Source of the DNA: a virus
Lineage: Duplodnaviria > Heunggongvirae > Uroviricota > Caudoviricetes
IMG/VR virus record: IMGVR_UViG_2700989365_000006
Direction: 5' to 3' (one strand)
DNA length: 39,001 nucleotides
Shown: one piece after another, positions 4,485-10,952 of the stretch
Numbering within the stretch: position 1 is the stretch's first letter
Layout of the letters: each line of letters begins with the position of its first letter
The notes under the pieces: generated by a model
Seen by the model: the letters and a program-made list of their open reading frames with translations, nothing else
What the model was told of the DNA's origin: nothing
The model's database searches: none
Made by a program: the position numbers and the translations under genes

Positions 4485-5084
4485 ATGGCGCATATACAAC
4501 TGGTCAAACAAACCTCTTCTGGTTTACTTCTCCCGGCGACGCCGGAGAGTTGCGATTTTCTGCATCAAATCAAAATAGGTGAGTGGATACACGCAGACTT
4601 TAAGCGTGTGTGTAACTACGCATTCCACAAGCGTTTTTTCAAACTCCTGCAACTGGGTTTCGATTACTGGACTCCGGTCGGTGGGGCGATCACGCCTCGC
4701 GAACGAGAACTGCTGTCTGGTTTCGTTGATTACCTGTGCGAATCAGTTGGTCGGGAACACACGCCAGCCCTGAGTGATGCCGCAGAGCAATACCTTAACA
4801 CCGTTGCGACTCGTAGAACCCGGGATACGGCGTTGCTAAAGTCGTTTGAGGCTTTCCGCGAGTGGGTAACCATTCAGGCCGGATTTTACACCGAGCATAT
4901 TTATCCGGACGGTAGCCGTGGGCGTCGGGCAAAATCCATCGCTTTTGCGAATATGGACGAAGTCGAGTTTCAGCAGGTTTATAAATCTGTACTGAATGTG
5001 CTGTGGAACTGGATTCTGTTCCGTAAATTCTCCTCTCAGGAGGAAGTTGAAAATGTGGCCGCACAACTACTGGAGTTTGCGTAA
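4485..5084 (+). CDS. DUF1367-family nin-region phage protein
   Basis: 199-aa ORF; sequence recognised as the DUF1367 family found upstream of Q in lambdoid prophages (for example Qin YdfU). Stop overlaps the next start (TAATG). Confidence 0.7.
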   Translation: MAHIQLVKQTSSGLLLPATPESCDFLHQIKIGEWIHADFKRVCNYAFHKRFFKLLQLGFDYWTPVGGAITPRERELLSGFVDYLCESVGREHTPALSDAAEQYLNTVATRRTRDTALLKSFEAFREWVTIQAGFYTEHIYPDGSRGRRAKSIAFANMDEVEFQQVYKSVLNVLWNWILFRKFSSQEEVENVAAQLLEFA

Positions 5085-5374
5085 TGGTGAATTTACGTAA
5101 AGCGGCTAAAGGCCAGATGTGCCAGATCAGAATCCCTGGCTACTGCAATCACAATCCCGAAACCTCTGTGCTGGCGCATTACAGGCTGGCGGGGACGTGC
5201 GGAACAGCGACAAAACCACATGATATGCAGGCGGCGATAGCCTGTAGCTCATGCCACGATCTAATCGACGGGCGGGTAAAAACCAGCGATTACACCAAAG
5301 AAGAATTGCGCCTGATGCATGCTGAAGGGGTTTTTCGCACACAAGAAATCTGGAGAAAGAAAGGTCATTTATGA
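5084..5374 (+). CDS. ybcO: YbcO-like DUF1364 protein (putative nuclease, Cys/His-rich)
   Basis: 96 aa; CQIRIPGYCNHNPETSVLAHYRLAG…AIACSSCHDLIDGR matches DLP12 YbcO as recalled. Translationally coupled on both sides. Confidence 0.65.
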   Translation: MVNLRKAAKGQMCQIRIPGYCNHNPETSVLAHYRLAGTCGTATKPHDMQAAIACSSCHDLIDGRVKTSDYTKEELRLMHAEGVFRTQEIWRKKGHL

Positions 5375-5913
5375 TTTACCCAACGAATACAGGAAAAAGC
5401 GGAGAACACCTTCGCCTCACCACGCTGGAAAGTGTCTGGATTCAGGGAAAACTACGTATGTGGGGGCGCTGGTCGTATATTGGCGGTGGCAGGTCAGGGA
5501 ATATGTTCAATCAGTTGTTGGCATCCAAAAAACTGACGAAAACAGCCATTAATGAAGCCCTGCGCAGAATGAAAAAAGCGGGAATAGAGAAAGCTGAGCT
5601 GGAAGCGTTTTTGCGAGAGATGATCAACGGCAAGCAAAAGAGCTGGCTGGCGCATTGTACTGATGCAGAGGCGTTATGTATTGATCGAGTCATAAGTGAG
5701 GTGCTGGCAGAGCATCCAGGATTGATTTGCATTCTCCGGCAACGCTATGAAGGGCGGGGGATGACTAAGCGCAAAATGGCTGAATTGCTAAATGATGCAC
5801 ACCCAGAGTGGTGTTTTAGCACATGCGAAAAACGGATTGCTAATTGGTTAGCTGTTGCTGAGTATGCCCTATATATTCCCATGCGTGAATCATTTGCTGA
5901 GAAAATGGCTTGA
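5371..5913 (+). CDS. late-gene antiterminator Q-like protein
   Basis: 180-aa ORF coupled to ybcO (ATGA overlap), immediately upstream of a strong intrinsic terminator and the lysis cassette, which is the canonical Q position. Unrelated to lambda Q in sequence, so the family call rests mainly on context. Confidence 0.55.
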   Translation: MIYPTNTGKSGEHLRLTTLESVWIQGKLRMWGRWSYIGGGRSGNMFNQLLASKKLTKTAINEALRRMKKAGIEKAELEAFLREMINGKQKSWLAHCTDAEALCIDRVISEVLAEHPGLICILRQRYEGRGMTKRKMAELLNDAHPEWCFSTCEKRIANWLAVAEYALYIPMRESFAEKMA

Positions 5914-5993
5914 TTTCTTACGTATAAACTGCTTCAATTTTGCTATGCTTCGCAAAGCTGTATCGCGAGGCGGATTGCAGACATGGACATCGT

Positions 5994-6020
5994 AAAAAAA
6001 CCGCTTAATGCGGTTTTTTT
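5994..6020 (+). terminator. tR'-like rho-independent terminator (A-run/T-run flanked, potentially bidirectional)
   Basis: AAAAAAACCGC-TTAAT-GCGGTTTTTTT: 7-bp GC-rich stem, 5-nt loop, 7-T tail, about 80 nt after the Q stop. Confidence 0.6.
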
Positions 6021-6340
6021 ACGTCAGGAAAGCAGGGGAGAATGCTGCTAGTTGGGCAACTGGTCTTTCTGCTCCAAATTATAACAGAGACCAGTTATAG
6101 TTTCGGTGCTGTGTTTTTTTTACAATATTGTGATAACACATTGCTGGCGGGAGTTTTGATATTTCTTGGCAGGGGCTGATGATGCGTTATCCTGATGTCG
6201 TCAACTCATATAAAATGAGATGAGAGATCATTGCAGGGTGGTTTGTAATTCGCTGTTTAGCGGGACAATATGTTGTCTGATACAAGACACCCGACGCCTC
6301 AGATTACTATAATAAAGACGAAGCATCCTTTGTATTGACC

Positions 6341-6366
6341 AACCGCCTGTTTAGGCGGTTCTTTTT
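6341..6366 (+). terminator. intrinsic terminator in the non-coding spacer (possible 3-prime end of a short RNA)
   Basis: AACCGCC-TGTTT-GGCGGTT followed by CTTTTT; a perfect TATAAT lies at 6308-6313, about 30 nt upstream. Confidence 0.4.
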
Positions 6367-6898
6367 GGGCTGGTTTATTGTATGCCAAATGATTATTAAA
6401 AAGGTTGTGTTAATAACAAGATCCGAAATAATATGCCTGCATATTTTTATCTTGCTTATATTCTGCATATTGTGCATAGCAGGCTCATCCCTGCAATCAA
6501 AACTGTATGATGAGTATTTTTTGTTTTCCTTTTTTCCAGTCATCTGATGATGACCTGCTTCTTTTTAATCCGGATCGACATCAGTTTTTTAAGATAATTC
6601 CTGCGAGTTATATGCATAAATGCCACAAACTCCGCATTTTATGTGGTTGGGAGTTGCCGGGCGCGCAGTGAGTTTGCTAAGAAAACTCCTGCATGGTGAA
6701 TCCCCCTGTGCGGTGGGGTGATACCATTAACCTTTTCTGTCGCCGACAGGTATCACGAACATTTTGTTCACCGGGAGGCACCCGGCACCATGCACTTCAA
6801 TAGATTCTCTCCACATTATGGATATTCTTTCAGAATATCCCACGCAGACTTTGTGTAAATGTTAACAAATGTGCGTTTTATTTGATCTGATTCGCTGT

Positions 6899-6928
6899 TT
6901 GAGCGTCCAAAACAACGGTATATATAAT
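6899..6928 (+). promoter_or_regulatory. putative sigma70 promoter for the lipoprotein moron
   Basis: -35 TTGAGC (6899-6904), 18-bp spacer, -10 TATAAT (6923-6928) inside TATATATAAT, about 30 nt upstream of ATG 6958. Confidence 0.35.
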
Positions 6929-6957
6929 CCTTTACTATATGACATATGTGAGGAAAA

Positions 6958-7386
6958 ATGGGTTTTCGTAGCGCATCAATTCTTACGTTGATTATTAGTG
7001 GGATTATTATCGGGTGCACTGATGCTGTATCGACAAATTATCATGACCGTACATCATATTACTCCGATAAAGCAATAGAGACACAGTATGTGAGTTCATC
7101 TGAACGTACTTCTGATGTTAGTGAGGATATCCGTCTGTATGCCCATCAAATCAAGAGCGCCATCGAAAAACAGTTCGGGGATGCGAGTAAGTATTCAGGA
7201 AAAGAGTGTACACTGAGAATGCATATGGCCCCGAATGGCCTTCTACTGGAGGTTAAAAGAGAAAGTGGAGACCTCGATTTATGTCGTGAAGCGATGAATG
7301 CGATAAAGAATGCTGATATACCTGCCCCCCCTTCGCCGGAAGTATATAAAGTATTTCAAAATGGGGTGCTGGATTTTAAACCCTGA
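6958..7386 (+). CDS. lipoprotein with C-terminal TolA domain III-like domain (moron; candidate TolA mimic/decoy)
   Basis: RBS GAGGA before ATG 6958. N-terminal signal peptide with a lipobox (…IIIGC, Cys20, Thr at +2). The C-terminus (YAHQIKSAIEKQFGDASKYSGKECTLRMHMAPNGLLLEVKRESGDLDLC…IPAPPSPEVYKVFQNGVLDFKP) aligns with the recalled C-terminus of E. coli TolA (…YAGQIKSAIESKFYDASSYAGKTCTLRIKLAPDGMLLDIKPEGGDPALC…IPKPPSQAVYEVFKNAPLDFKP), including both cysteines. Confidence 0.7.
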   Translation: MGFRSASILTLIISGIIIGCTDAVSTNYHDRTSYYSDKAIETQYVSSSERTSDVSEDIRLYAHQIKSAIEKQFGDASKYSGKECTLRMHMAPNGLLLEVKRESGDLDLCREAMNAIKNADIPAPPSPEVYKVFQNGVLDFKP

Positions 7387-7536
7387 TATTTATTGTTTTG
7401 TAATAAACGGTTTCGGCTTAGGTTTGTTCTGACACAGCTACGGCACTGAGCTAAATTTAGCGGATAGTCAGCTCTGAGCCAGTGGCGGACGTAACAACTA
7501 CTATTGCTGAGATTTTAATGGATTGAGGAGCAAGAA

Positions 7537-7932
7537 GTGGGATTAAAGAAAATCGTTATGTTGACTTTTTGGGTCGGTTTTGTTGCGGGATGCACACCTT
7601 TACACCCTTCAGATTGCCACAAAACTACTGCTACAGGTAGTTGCAGTTCAGGACGCTGGGATGATCAGGATGAATGGGGGGCGCAAGCGCGGGGAATCAG
7701 AGCTGCAATTAATGCCAAACTTGATGAGCCGCATAACTGGAAAGGGAAAAAATGCAGGTTGCATATGGAATTCTCTCAGGATGGCACGGCGTTAAAAATA
7801 TCTACCAGTAACGGTGATAAAGCCTATTGCGAAGCGATAAAGTCCGCAGCTCATAAAGCCAAATTTCCGGCCTTCAACAATCCGGAAGTCTACAGAGATT
7901 TTCAGAAATCTGGCTTTGACATGCGAGGTTAG
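7537..7932 (+). CDS. paralogous lipoprotein with a divergent TolA-III-like C-terminal domain
   Basis: GTG 7537 preceded by GAGGAG (7525-7530). Signal peptide plus lipobox (FVAGC, Cys19). The C-terminus (KKCRLHMEFSQDGTALKIS…YCEAIKSAAHKAKFPAFNNPEVYRDFQKSGFDMRG) keeps the TolA-III-like pattern and both cysteines. Confidence 0.65.
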   Translation: MGLKKIVMLTFWVGFVAGCTPLHPSDCHKTTATGSCSSGRWDDQDEWGAQARGIRAAINAKLDEPHNWKGKKCRLHMEFSQDGTALKISTSNGDKAYCEAIKSAAHKAKFPAFNNPEVYRDFQKSGFDMRG

Positions 7933-8057
7933 CTCTTCAATTACTATATCTCATTCATAGCAAACTGACAGATTTGATGATGTTCTATATACGAAACCTG
8001 TGATGTCAAGTCTGAGCTAATACAAATAAACATAATATCAGAGAAATACATTTTATT

Positions 8058-8081
8058 AGCTCGCTACGGCGAGCTTTTTAT
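8058..8081 (+). terminator. rho-independent terminator after the lipoprotein moron
   Basis: AGCTCGC-TACG-GCGAGCT perfect 7-bp stem followed by TTTTTAT. Confidence 0.5.
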
Positions 8082-8183
8082 ATTGCATCGTCTCCAGCAT
8101 ATATATCAATTAAGGCTCTGATTGATGTGTCTGAAAGCCTACACATAATAACTATGCCATCCGTTCCGTGCGGAGGTGAGGCT

Positions 8184-8399
8184 ATGAAATCCATGGACAA
8201 AATTTCAACAGGCATTGCCTACGGCACCTCCGCAGGCAGTGCTGGCTACTGGTTTTTACAGTTGCTCGATAGAGTAACTCCGTCACAGTGGGCTGCAATC
8301 GGTGTGCTGGGTAGTCTGGTATTTGGCCTGCTGACGTACCTGACAAACCTTTATTTCAAGATTAAAGAAGATAAGCGCAAGGCTGCGAGAGGTGAATAA
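8184..8399 (+). CDS. S: phage-21-type pinholin S (dual-start: antiholin from MKSM, holin from the downstream Met)
   Basis: [71 protein letters not shown] is near-identical to S21 as recalled. Dual-start motif at ATG 8184 and ATG 8193; RBS GGAGGTGAGG upstream. Confidence 0.85.
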
Positions 8400-8896
8400 T
8401 GCCTCCATCATTACGAAAAGTCGTTGCTGCTGCTATTGGTGGCGGAGCAATTGCTATAGCATCAGTGTTAATCACTGGCCCAAGTGGTAACGATGGTCTG
8501 GAAGGTGTCAGCTACATACCATACAAAGATATTGTTGGTGTATGGACTGTATGTCACGGGCATACAGGAAAAGACATCATGCTCGGTAAAACGTATACCA
8601 AAGCAGAATGCAAAACACTCTTGAATAAAGACCTTGCCACTGTCGCCAGACAAATTAACCCGTACATCAAAGTCGATATACCGGAAACAACGCGCTGCGC
8701 TCTTTACTCGTTCGTTTACAACGTGGGCGCTGGCAATTTCAGAACATCGACGCTTCTTCGCAAAATAAACCAGGGCGATATCAAAGGCGCATGTGACCAG
8801 CTACGTCGCTGGACATATGCTGGCGGTAAGCAATGGAAAGGTCTCATGACTCGTCGTGAGATTGAGCGTGAAATCTGTTTGTGGGGTCAGCAATGA
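8399..8896 (+). CDS. R: SAR (signal-anchor-release) endolysin, lysozyme family, phage-21 R-like
   Basis: N-terminal G/A-rich weakly hydrophobic SAR domain ([20 protein letters not shown]) followed by a lysozyme domain; matches R21 as recalled. Start overlaps the holin stop. Confidence 0.85.
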
Positions 8897-9357
8897 ACAG
8901 AGTAACCGCGATTATCTCCGCTCTGGTTATCTGCATCATCGTCTGCCTGTCATGGGCTGTTAATCATTACCGTGATAACGCCATTACCTACAAAGCCCAG
9001 CGCGACAAAAATGCCAGAGAACTGAAGCTGGCGAACGCGGCAATTACTGACATGCAGATGCGTCAGCGTGATGTTGCTGCGCTCGATGCAAAATACACGA
9101 AGGAGTTAGCTGATGCGAAAGCTGAAAATGATGCTCTGCGTGATGATGTTGCCGCTGGTCGTCGTCGGTTGCACATCAAAGCAGTCTGTCAGTCAGTGCG
9201 TGAAGCCACCACCGCCTCCGGCGTGGATAATGCAACCAGCCCCCGACTGGCAGACACCGCTGAACGGGATTATTTCACCCTCCGGGAACGACTGGTAATG
9301 ATGCAGGCCCAACTTGAAGGTGCTCAGCAATACATAACCGAGCAGTGTTTAAAGTAA
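8893..9357 (+). CDS. Rz: Rz i-spanin
   Basis: ATG 8893 overlaps the endolysin stop. N-terminal TM helix and a coiled-coil periplasmic domain; contains Rz1 in the +1 frame. Confidence 0.8.
9113..9298 (+). CDS. Rz1: Rz1 o-spanin (outer-membrane lipoprotein, embedded in Rz)
   Basis: [23 protein letters not shown]… with lipobox VVGC and a proline-rich mature part (PPPPPAW), entirely inside Rz in another frame. Confidence 0.8.
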
Positions 9358-9494
9358 AATCTTAACTACAATATGATTCATTTTGATGATTGTTTCATAA
9401 GGAACAGTGAAGTAAGATCTAAGAGGAGTTAAATTTTATACAGTATAATCATAATATTGCAGCAAGGTGGTTATAATTGAAAGAATATTTAGAT

Positions 9495-10952
9495 ATGAAT
9501 ACATCTCATGTAAGAGTTGTTACTCATATGTGTGGGTTCCTGGTTTGGCTCTATAGTCTTTCAATGTTGCCACCAATGGTTGTAGCATTGTTTTATAAAG
9601 AAAAAAGCCTGTTCGTTTTCTTTATAACTTTCGTTATATTTTTTTGCATTGGTGGCGGAGCGTGGTATACAACTAAGAAATCTGGCATTCAATTACGTAC
9701 CCGTGATGGGTTTATTATAATTGTAATGTTTTGGATTTTGTTTTCTGTTATTAGTGCATTCCCTTTATGGATTGACTCAGAACTTAATTTAACGTTCATT
9801 GATGCTCTGTTTGAAGGGGTTTCTGGAATAACAACAACAGGAGCAACTGTAATTGATGATGTTAGTTCATTACCTCGGGCATATTTGTACTATCGGTCAC
9901 AGTTAAATTTTATAGGTGGTTTAGGAGTTATTGTTCTGGCGGTTGCAGTATTGCCATTATTGGGTATTGGTGGTGCAAAGCTTTATCAGTCAGAAATGCC
10001 GGGGCCATTTAAGGATGACAAACTCACTCCCCGCCTGGCCGATACGTCACGGACACTGTGGATAACTTATTCTTTATTAGGTATTGCTTGTATTGTCTGT
10101 TATAGACTTGCAGGAATGCCTTTGTTTGATGCTATTTGTCACGGGATTTCCACAGTTTCGCTTGGTGGTTTCTCAACTCATAGCGAGAGTATCGGATATT
10201 TTAATAACTATTTGGTTGAGCTGGTGGCTGGTTCTTTTTCCCTGCTATCGGCTTTCAACTTCACTCTTTGGTATATTGTTATTAGCAGAAAAACGATAAA
10301 ACCTTTAATCAGAGATATTGAACTTCGTTTCTTTCTGTTAATAGCCTTAGGGGTGATCATTGTTACCTCTTTCCAGGTCTGGCATATAGGTATGTATGAC
10401 TTGCATGGAAGTTTTATTCATTCGTTTTTTCTTGCCAGCTCCATGCTCACTGATAATGGTTTAGCTACGCAGGATTATGCAAACTGGCCCACGCACACGA
10501 TAGTGTTTTTGCTGTTGTCAAGTTTCTTTGGGGGATGTATAGGTTCAACCTGTGGTGGAATTAAGTCACTTCGATTTCTTATACTTTTCAAACAAAGCAA
10601 ACACGAGATAAATCAGCTTTCTCATCCCAGAGCGTTGTTGAGTGTAAATGTAGGAGGGAAGATAGTTACAGATCGTGTAATGAGGTCTGTATGGAGTTTC
10701 TTTTTTCTTTATACTCTCTTCACGGTGTTTTTTATACTGGTGTTAAATGGTATGGGATATGATTTTCTTACATCATTTGCAACAGTGGCTGCATGTATTA
10801 ATAATATGGGATTAGGTTTTGGGGCTACTGCATCGTCATTCGGAGTGCTTAATGACATTGCAAAATATTTAATGTGCATAGCTATGATTCTTGGTCGCCT
10901 TGAAATTTATCCTGTTATTATATTGTTTTCAGGTTTTTTTTGGCGCTCCTAA
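9495..10952 (+). CDS. trkG: TrkG/TrkH-family potassium uptake membrane protein (prophage moron)
   Basis: Polytopic membrane protein with repeated Gly-rich pore-loop motifs (GVSGITTTGATV, GIGGAKL, VSLGGFS, GGIKS). N-terminus MNTSHVRVVTHMCGFLVW matches Rac-prophage TrkG as recalled. AT-rich. An alternative TTG start at 9477 has the better SD (AAGGTGG). Confidence 0.75.
   Translation: MNTSHVRVVTHMCGFLVWLYSLSMLPPMVVALFYKEKSLFVFFITFVIFFCIGGGAWYTTKKSGIQLRTRDGFIIIVMFWILFSVISAFPLWIDSELNLTFIDALFEGVSGITTTGATVIDDVSSLPRAYLYYRSQLNFIGGLGVIVLAVAVLPLLGIGGAKLYQSEMPGPFKDDKLTPRLADTSRTLWITYSLLGIACIVCYRLAGMPLFDAICHGISTVSLGGFSTHSESIGYFNNYLVELVAGSFSLLSAFNFTLWYIVISRKTIKPLIRDIELRFFLLIALGVIIVTSFQVWHIGMYDLHGSFIHSFFLASSMLTDNGLATQDYANWPTHTIVFLLLSSFFGGCIGSTCGGIKSLRFLILFKQSKHEINQLSHPRALLSVNVGGKIVTDRVMRSVWSFFFLYTLFTVFFILVLNGMGYDFLTSFATVAACINNMGLGFGATASSFGVLNDIAKYLMCIAMILGRLEIYPVIILFSGFFWRS

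Follow-up and report, generated by a model that had tools for sequence, protein, structure and literature searches.

Competition among enterobacteria is driven in large part by colicins and filamentous phages, and those of them that depend on the Tol system all need domain III of TolA (TolA-III), either directly or via TolB. The known means of protection are plasmid-borne immunity proteins, each directed against a single toxin, or the costly loss of a receptor. Here, we describe a mobile cassette that codes for two short lipoproteins carrying a TolA-III domain. It lies between a gene for a Q-like antiterminator and the lysis genes in a 39,001-nucleotide (nt) stretch of tailed-phage DNA (IMG/VR record IMGVR_UViG_2700989365_000006), the whole of which is called the window below; all features discussed are on the plus strand. 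We refer to the protein of the open reading frame (ORF) 6958-7386 as P1 and to that of the ORF 7537-7932 as P2.

The surfaces by which TolA-III is bound have been mapped. The N1 domain of g3p and colicin N both add a strand to TolA beta-3 (residues 412-420, with D418 and K420 involved through their backbone; Ridley and Lakey 2015, PMC4339652), and g3p-N1 additionally touches helix 1 (residues 334-349; PMC4339652). The N terminus of TolB binds the same beta-3 edge (PMC7391070). Colicin A adds to beta-2 (L375-P380) and makes cation-pi contacts with K368, K379, and K396 (Li 2012, PMC3365938). The known interactions of TolA-III are of micromolar affinity (PMC7391070, PMC4339652).

The reading that we favor, while giving it somewhat less than an even chance, is that the cassette encodes decoys tethered to the outer membrane, which would act against Tol-dependent colicins and filamentous phages. 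P1, a protein of 142 residues, is encoded by an intact ORF whose ATG is preceded by a Shine-Dalgarno sequence (GAGGA at 6950-6954, with GAGG ending 4 bases 5' of the start codon). Signal peptide and lipobox span residues 1-20 (MGFRSASILTLIISGIIIGC, followed by TD; lipobox IIGC followed by T; Cys20 codon at 7015-7017) and have the basic n-region, hydrophobic core, and lipobox [LVI][ASTVI][GAS]C expected of bacterial lipoproteins; they pass a PROSITE PS51257-type lipoprotein rule, which was applied to both proteins. A linker (residues 21-54) leads to the TolA-III domain (residues 55-142; 7120-7383). P1 matched the Pfam family PF06519 (TolA C-terminal) with 82.6 bits (E 2.4e-23; gathering score 25). 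In a search of the PDB sequences, residues 55-142 aligned without gaps to residues 334-421 of Escherichia coli TolA (E 5e-28), with 52 of 88 positions identical (59%), and the disulfide cysteines are retained, C84 and C109 matching Cys363-Cys388 of TolA. A preliminary description of the locus had aligned P1 with TolA almost residue for residue, both cysteines included, and the actual comparison essentially bears this out.

P2 (131 residues) starts with a GTG, which aligns with the ATG of a plasmid homologue and is preceded by GAGGAG (7525-7530) at a distance of 6 bases. Its signal peptide and lipobox occupy residues 1-19 (MGLKKIVMLTFWVGFVAGC, followed by TP; lipobox VAGC followed by T; Cys19 codon at 7591-7593), and the lipoprotein rule is passed here as well. 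The start given in RefSeq is an internal ATG at 7558; this choice removes the basic n-region, and the rule then fails. A conserved Cys-rich linker (residues 20-39; 7594-7653) precedes the TolA-III domain (about residues 40-131). P2 matched PF06519 with 54.6 bits (E 1.3e-14; gathering score 25), is identical to E. coli TolA 334-421 at 27 of 88 positions (31%), and retains the disulfide cysteines (C73 and C98). P1 and P2 share 27% identity and are, as judged from this comparison, distant paralogues.

The predicted structures are in agreement with these assignments. With Foldseek, the AlphaFold model of P1 superposed on TolA-III (2x9a_B) with a root mean square deviation of 0.7 Å over 88 columns (template modeling [TM] score, 0.95) and that of P2 on 3qdp with 1.1 Å over 86 columns (TM score, 0.92). 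In both models, the TolA-III domain has a predicted local distance difference test value of 80 to 95, and the N-terminal region and linker are of low confidence. The preliminary description of two paralogous genes, each with a ribosome-binding site (RBS), a signal peptide, a lipobox cysteine, and a C-terminal TolA-III domain, thus holds, including the coordinates, and so does the relationship to TolA at the level of both alignment and structure.

Both genes are under purifying selection. Between P1 and a 66%-identical allele, the ratio of nonsynonymous to synonymous substitution rates (dN/dS, by the Nei-Gojobori method) was 0.36 for the whole gene, 0.24 for its domain part, and 0.50 for signal peptide and linker together (allele P0028). 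Divergent P1 alleles (91%, 74%, and 66% identity) retain the ORF and the lipobox despite changed signal peptides; the lipobox itself occurs as IIGC followed by TD or as LTTGC followed by TK, the signal peptides having diverged around both. In the P2 family, 115 of 120 members show the motif xxC followed by xPL. P2 gave dN/dS values of 0.06 to 0.13 against its plasmid, Enterobacter, Serratia, and Citrobacter homologues, and all pairs of the P2 family fell between 0.06 and 0.17 at dS values of 0.2 to 1.1 (Nei-Gojobori). RefSeq labels P1 inconsistently: it is a "tolA pseudogene" ("incomplete; missing N-terminus") in CP033250 and an intact coding sequence, WP_022645723.1, in CP145646. Because P1 evolves under purifying selection, the pseudogene label is wrong. 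A further member of the P1 family, P0023, found in metagenome assemblies, is identical to P1 from about residue 76 to the C terminus and resembles the divergent allele group in its signal peptide, linker, and domain helix 1, a mosaic that points to recombination inside the gene. We also considered a recent capture of P1 from a host tolA and rejected it; among the best 150 representatives, no full-length TolA is more than about 56% identical (E. coli TolA, 59%), and no donor tolA was identified in this set.

At the interfaces used by invaders, P1 is largely host-like. Among its colicin A contacts, L375, L376, K379, and K396 are identical to TolA, D377E, I378V, and L392M are conservative, and only K368H and P380R are changed. 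The g3p-binding helix 1 has 11 of 16 residues as in TolA, and beta-3 reads FQNGVLDFKP against FKNAPLDFKP in TolA, the C-terminal LDFKP being intact. We also compared 58 short lipoproteins with 50 long TolAs, the sequences within this sample being interrelated. The two groups do not differ in how well the hydrophobic core and beta-3 are conserved, and D418 in beta-3 (NAxLDFKP) is present in 40/58 short proteins versus 16/50 long ones. A tyrosine linked to TolB binding (Y353 here, Tyr-352 as published) is present in 36 of the 50 TolAs and in only 13 of the 58 short lipoproteins; P1 has Gly and P2 has Asp at this position. Given the interrelated sequences, this contrast is suggestive only, but it would suit a decoy that spares the TolB of the host.

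According to the decoy reading, P1 and P2 would be exported, lipidated at Cys20 and Cys19, respectively, and delivered to the outer membrane, on its inner face. Under the classical +2 rule, a residue other than Asp at position +2 directs a lipoprotein to the outer membrane, and such sorting is predicted for P1 and P2 because their +2 residue is Thr and not Asp. Asp was likewise found at +2 in 0 of 44 representatives of the short family. The folded TolA-III would be held on a flexible tether of about 20 to 35 residues, and the lysogen would transcribe both genes from the cassette's own promoter. Beneath the outer membrane, the domains would capture ligands bound for the energized TolA, all by beta-strand addition: g3p through its N1 domain, and group A colicins and similar bacteriocins through their disordered translocation domains. 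On such a dead-end TolA-III, lacking the TolQR motor, import would stall and the host would be tolerant. P1 would be a host-like decoy in which the colicin A edge, the edge shared by g3p, colicin N, and TolB, and the helix are largely kept, and P2 may represent a diverged second specificity that is separately conserved. Beyond the folded TolA-III lipoprotein, we thus infer every step: that the proteins reach the outer membrane, are made in the lysogen, bind the ligands, and confer tolerance. As to the principle, Levengood-Freyermuth et al. reportedly observed in 1993 that a periplasmic C-terminal domain of TolA made E. coli colicin tolerant as well as leaky.

The cassette is mobile. In a set of 5,426 complete E. 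coli genomes, it was present in full length and with at least 99% identity in 773 (about 14%), and it was also found in about 125 IMG/VR contigs. It occurs in two prophage backbones, Rac-like and Qin-like, between a Q-like antiterminator and the holin. From about position 6767 on, the window is matched at 99% identity by prophages of the Qin-like kind whose antiterminator is another one, and in cassette-less prophages, homology resumes at 8157-8169, at the start of the holin gene. These boundaries from the genome comparison delimit a unit of about 1.4 kb (6767..8157) comprising the P1 and P2 genes. Most essD-type prophages lack it. In CP033250, a copy exactly matches window positions 6800-8100; the left neighbors of the late region there are chromosomal genes and then hokD, and this carrier is a prophage remnant without the left-side immunity and replication module. 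A comparison of uropathogenic E. coli genomes lists a 1,355-bp segment of a phage region as "TolA protein, hypothetical protein" (PMC6854850). When 50,697 deposited phage records were searched with tblastn, the sole match was mEp460_ev081, in a region of Qin-like appearance. The holin of this phage is mislabeled "Phage tail fiber protein," and RAST-style labels are unreliable in the cassette region. A fold search of BFVD did not find TolA-III at an E value of ≤0.001.

Within this unit, a sigma-70 promoter-like site (TTGAGC-18 nt-TATAAT, 10 of 12 consensus matches) is located at 6899-6928 and is identical in the Qin-like copy of the cassette. An intrinsic terminator-like hairpin is located at 8058-8081 and consists of a 7-pair stem with 5 G-C pairs followed by TTTTTATATT; its folding energy of -13 kcal/mol (z -3.5) was reached by 0 of 200 shuffled sequences. 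In the 150-nt spacer between the two genes, no terminator-like structure was found and RNA folding was insignificant (z -0.8). P1 and P2 are probably cotranscribed, since the spacer lacks a terminator. With a discrete insertion in the late operon, promoter-like and terminator-like sites, and presence or absence among relatives, the cassette has the properties of a lambdoid moron, in line with its initial description as a self-contained one. We had also considered a prophage gene, EDL933_2012 (discussed as a "TolA-type membrane protein," 32-fold up with ciprofloxacin), as evidence of expression and dropped it, since the S1 table of the same study gives a tail fiber protein (PMC11125564).

The placement of the cassette between Q and the lysis genes was equally upheld. 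Upstream, at 5371..5913, lies the Q-like late antiterminator, which matched DUF1133 with 356 bits and Phage_antitermQ marginally (26.1 bits; gathering score 26). Following the lambdoid phage layout, we assign the region 6284..6360 as a candidate PR'/tR'-like pair, that is, the late promoter and first terminator on which Q would act: a promoter-like site (AAGACA-18-TATAAT, 6284-6313) is followed 28 nt downstream by a hairpin (6341-6360) that is weakly better than shuffled sequences (z -1.7). If this pair is responsive to Q, induction would also lead to late read-through into the cassette. Downstream, the lysis cassette (8127..9357) encodes a P21-type holin, a lysozyme, and Rz (Pfam Phage_holin_2_1, Phage_lysozyme, Phage_lysis, and Rz1); an embedded Rz1 is located at 9113-9298. 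Directly after Rz/Rz1, the late region carries a second piece of cargo, trkG (9477-10952), which codes for a TrkH-family potassium transporter and has the same place in the Rac prophage. The only Rfam match near the cassette is to the small RNA family STnc100 (6661-6847; 86.6 bits, E 2.9e-18; gathering score 47). This match extends across the left edge of the cassette (about 6767) and is some 50 nt away from the promoter-like site, on its upstream side. No tRNA was found in the window.

The genes also occur in other combinations. P1-type alleles of about 80% nucleotide identity are solitary in about 136 genomes, and among the examples listed, the carriers are largely cattle-derived strains or strains labeled with serotypes of E. 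coli that produces Shiga toxin (STEC). In STEC prophages, these alleles are found after Q, tRNA-Ile, and tRNA-Arg and before nanS-p, the slot of the stx genes in Stx phages. The tandem arrangement noted at first is therefore present in this prophage but is one particular combination, as the P1-type gene stands alone in STEC prophages.

P2 turned out not to be phage specific, its family being present on IncI-complex plasmids, on pO157, and as solitary genes on Enterobacterales chromosomes. A P2-type gene of 87% nucleotide identity was found on about 600 plasmids, with homology limited to 7507-7935, that is, to the RBS and the ORF. On conjugative plasmids of the IncI complex (IncI1/B/O), it follows 68 nt after a nikB-type relaxase gene. 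On pO157 (NZ_CP018248.1), the gene (5995-6426 in the locus) has an IS3 element beside it and precedes toxB by about 1.8 kb; this ORF was sequenced long ago and has apparently remained unstudied. The protein family comprises 368 clusters at 90% identity, including Citrobacter, Enterobacter, Serratia, Klebsiella, and Raoultella, and among the GTDB species representatives, the gene is present in 30 species of about 15 genera. Two 8-kb contigs from GTDB metagenome-assembled genomes of Lachnospiraceae and Treponemataceae also carry a P2-type gene (89% identity); they are almost certainly misbinned fragments of enterobacterial plasmids.

Chromosomal P2-type copies are solitary and occupy a different site in each genus. 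The gene is flanked by gpx and ridA in Enterobacter and by nrdDG and GmrSD/HEPN genes in Serratia, and it adjoins the ars operon in Citrobacter. At the Serratia marcescens locus (5001-7736), it lies directly upstream of genes for GmrSD_N and HEPN-domain proteins, a setting that resembles a defense island. A comparison of neighborhoods across genera revealed no conserved partner gene, synteny being seen within Leclercia alone. LysR-type regulators recurred near the gene but at variable distance and orientation, and we rejected them as partners since their proximity is probably due to chance. A profile search of 1.84 billion representatives yielded 596 TolA-III relatives. Among the best 148 of these, 76 are 100 to 170 residues long, and 59 of the 76 have a lipobox (at least 59 clusters at 50% identity). 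Such short proteins were also found in Klebsiella, Enterobacter, Serratia, and Rahnella, where they are named, if at all, "TolA C-terminal domain-containing protein" or "colicin import membrane protein."

The range of carriers (prophage moron, stx slot, IncI-complex plasmids, pO157, and chromosomal islets) fits what is expected of a tolerance gene. The I pili of I-complex plasmids are the primary receptor of phage If1, and binding of the If1 g3p to TolA-III is documented by the structure 2x9a. We consider it possible, though rather doubtful, that the short TolA-III lipoproteins form a widespread and unrecognized class of tolerance factors, tethered mimics of the import hub that are traded among Enterobacterales. 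As an equally tentative part of this reading, the tandem of P1 and P2 would combine two specificities, and the plasmid copies would offset the liability to filamentous phages that the pilus creates.

Several observations weigh against the decoy reading. First, the micromolar affinities of TolA-III imply that a decoy would need to be abundant, and one that also bound TolB would carry an envelope cost. Second, the mimicry of TolA proposed initially for both proteins stands for P1 at the interfaces but not for P2, which has lost the lysines contacted by colicin A (K368E, K379S, and K396H), keeping only I378 and L376 of these contacts, and which shares with TolA only 4 of 16 residues in helix 1 and 2 of 10 in beta-3 (412-421; FQKSGFDMRG). 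Moreover, the P2 family has a strictly conserved linker, C-x-PLHPS-x-CHKTTATGSCSSGRWDDQDEWG, with two extra cysteines and no counterpart in TolA or P1. AlphaFold confidence is low in this linker, and its conservation hints at a function of its own beyond that of a decoy. P2-type proteins are 79 to 89% identical across Serratia, Enterobacter, Citrobacter, Klebsiella, and E. coli elements and do not track the TolA of each host, as a simple mimic might, and many of their genes sit in chromosomal contexts without hallmarks of mobile elements, which would be compatible with a housekeeping role. Third, the putative cassette promoter is a consensus match, and an alignment did not reveal it upstream of the divergent P1-type alleles. 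Finally, no functional study of TolA-III lipoproteins was found in the full-text literature, PADLOC gave no match to either protein at E values up to 1, and in PHROGs both belong to phrog_5772, "unknown function." The family is thus already cataloged (PHROG 5772 and the NCBI names), with no functional role found in the literature; this is in agreement with the preliminary description, whose author knew of no characterized prophage mimic of TolA-III.

An alternative that we consider fairly unlikely is that P1 and P2 modulate Tol-Pal. A tethered TolA-III would bind host TolB at its N terminus, or a different natural partner such as CpoB, compete with TolA, and partly uncouple the mobilization of Pal, so that the lysogen would release more vesicles or its envelope would rupture more easily upon Q-dependent late read-through before lysis. 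The beta-3 edge, which is used by the TolB N terminus, is indeed the best conserved one in P1 and in the family, and the genes are inside the late transcription unit, directly upstream of holin, endolysin, and spanin. The conservation of P2 across genera would also suit a conserved endogenous ligand such as TolB, and tol defects are known to lead to hypervesiculation and leakiness (reviewed in PMC7391070). However, the tyrosine linked to TolB is mostly lost in the short lipoproteins, including P1 and P2, and a chronic Tol-Pal defect is costly. The cassette also has a promoter-like site and a terminator of its own, and its persistence at such high identity in 773 genomes, a prophage remnant among them, speaks for a gene from which the living host profits and against a lysis accessory. 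In addition, the plasmid and chromosomal P2-type genes have no lysis context.

It is unlikely, in our view, that P1 and P2 belong to an ordinary family of envelope lipoproteins in Enterobacterales whose ligand has nothing to do with colicins, phages, or TolB. TolA-III would then be a generic module for beta-strand addition, perhaps acting together with the Cys-rich linker, and the phage and plasmid copies would be passengers or would help in some unrelated way, e.g., in surviving stress or serum. The number of short lipobox-bearing clusters and the presence of a chromosomal P2-type gene in each of 30 GTDB species representatives, in many cases without mobile-looking surroundings, speak for this, and the strict linker motif with its two extra cysteines suggests a specific function of its own. 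On the other hand, the chromosomal site varies by genus while the protein remains about 80 to 89% identical, and the homology to the plasmid copies is limited to RBS and ORF, which indicates a horizontally traded accessory gene and not a core component of the envelope. Furthermore, the experimentally known partners of TolA-III are all either Tol-Pal partners or invaders.

Mechanisms other than those listed here appear improbable. That P1 is a decaying fragment of a captured tolA and the pair functionless is exceedingly improbable: the tolA pseudogene label assigned by PGAP in CP033250 and the near absence of such genes from deposited phages (1/50,697) and of the fold from BFVD would suit such debris, but it is contradicted by the selection and conservation data, namely, an intact ORF with an acquired signal peptide and lipobox, kept in alleles of 66 to 91% identity, a dN/dS of 0.24 in the domain, an intact PGAP coding sequence elsewhere (WP_022645723.1), and full-length TolA representatives no closer than about 56%, which excludes a recent fragment.

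If the decoy reading is true, a mobile mimic of the import hub would provide a broad, cheap, and so far uncataloged tolerance and would be the first natural "hub decoy" against toxins and phages. It would also explain why a gene of this kind adjoins the relaxase gene on conjugative plasmids whose pili attract filamentous phages, and it would have a bearing on colicin- and phage-based therapeutics. Should the proteins be Tol-Pal modulators instead, they would be the first regulators of Tol-Pal encoded by mobile elements. For Tol-Pal research, these natural variants of TolA-III may separate the binding of invaders from that of TolB. The cassette is very common, and its relatives are carried by hundreds of IncI-complex plasmids and by pO157.

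Compared with E. coli TolA, whose domain III is known from several structures (PDB 1TOL, 1S62, 2X9A, and 3QDP/3QDR), P1 and P2 have the alpha/beta fold with its three-stranded sheet and the disulfide pair in common but lack the domain I anchor, the helical domain II, and the link to TolQR, and they have a signal peptide and a short tether instead. Accordingly, neither scored as a canonical TolA in NF007065 (P1, 107.8; P2, 53.7; cutoff, 213), and the matches to the canonical models (NF007065 and TIGR02794) were confined to about the last 95 positions (293-386 of 387 and 265-362 of 362).

The closest functional parallels are Llp of T5, Cor of phi80, N15, and the mEp phages, and TraT of F, which are likewise small outer-membrane lipoproteins encoded by mobile elements. 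These products of moron or accessory genes are expressed in the carrier and are thought to block outside agents; proteins of this type inactivate an outer-membrane receptor, e.g., FhuA or OmpA. P1 and P2, in contrast, would mimic a periplasmic import hub rather than block a receptor. A Pfam scan of the two proteins gave only TolA, TonB_2, and a subthreshold match to But2 (E 0.15; 12.9 bits against 24.2) and no relationship to Llp, Cor, or TraT, and neither protein belongs to a defense protein family cataloged in PADLOC. In its genomic logic, the cassette resembles the lambdoid morons between Q and S (stx and nanS-p) and bor, downstream of Rz, but its products differ from theirs, and a virulence role is not indicated. 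In the laboratory, g3p-N1, colicin T-domains, or TolA-III placed in the periplasm lead to colicin tolerance and filamentous-phage resistance. The decoys proposed here would share this principle, but those competitors are engineered or, as with g3p, arise incidentally when a filamentous phage infects, whereas P1 and P2 would be natural, lipid-anchored, and horizontally spread.

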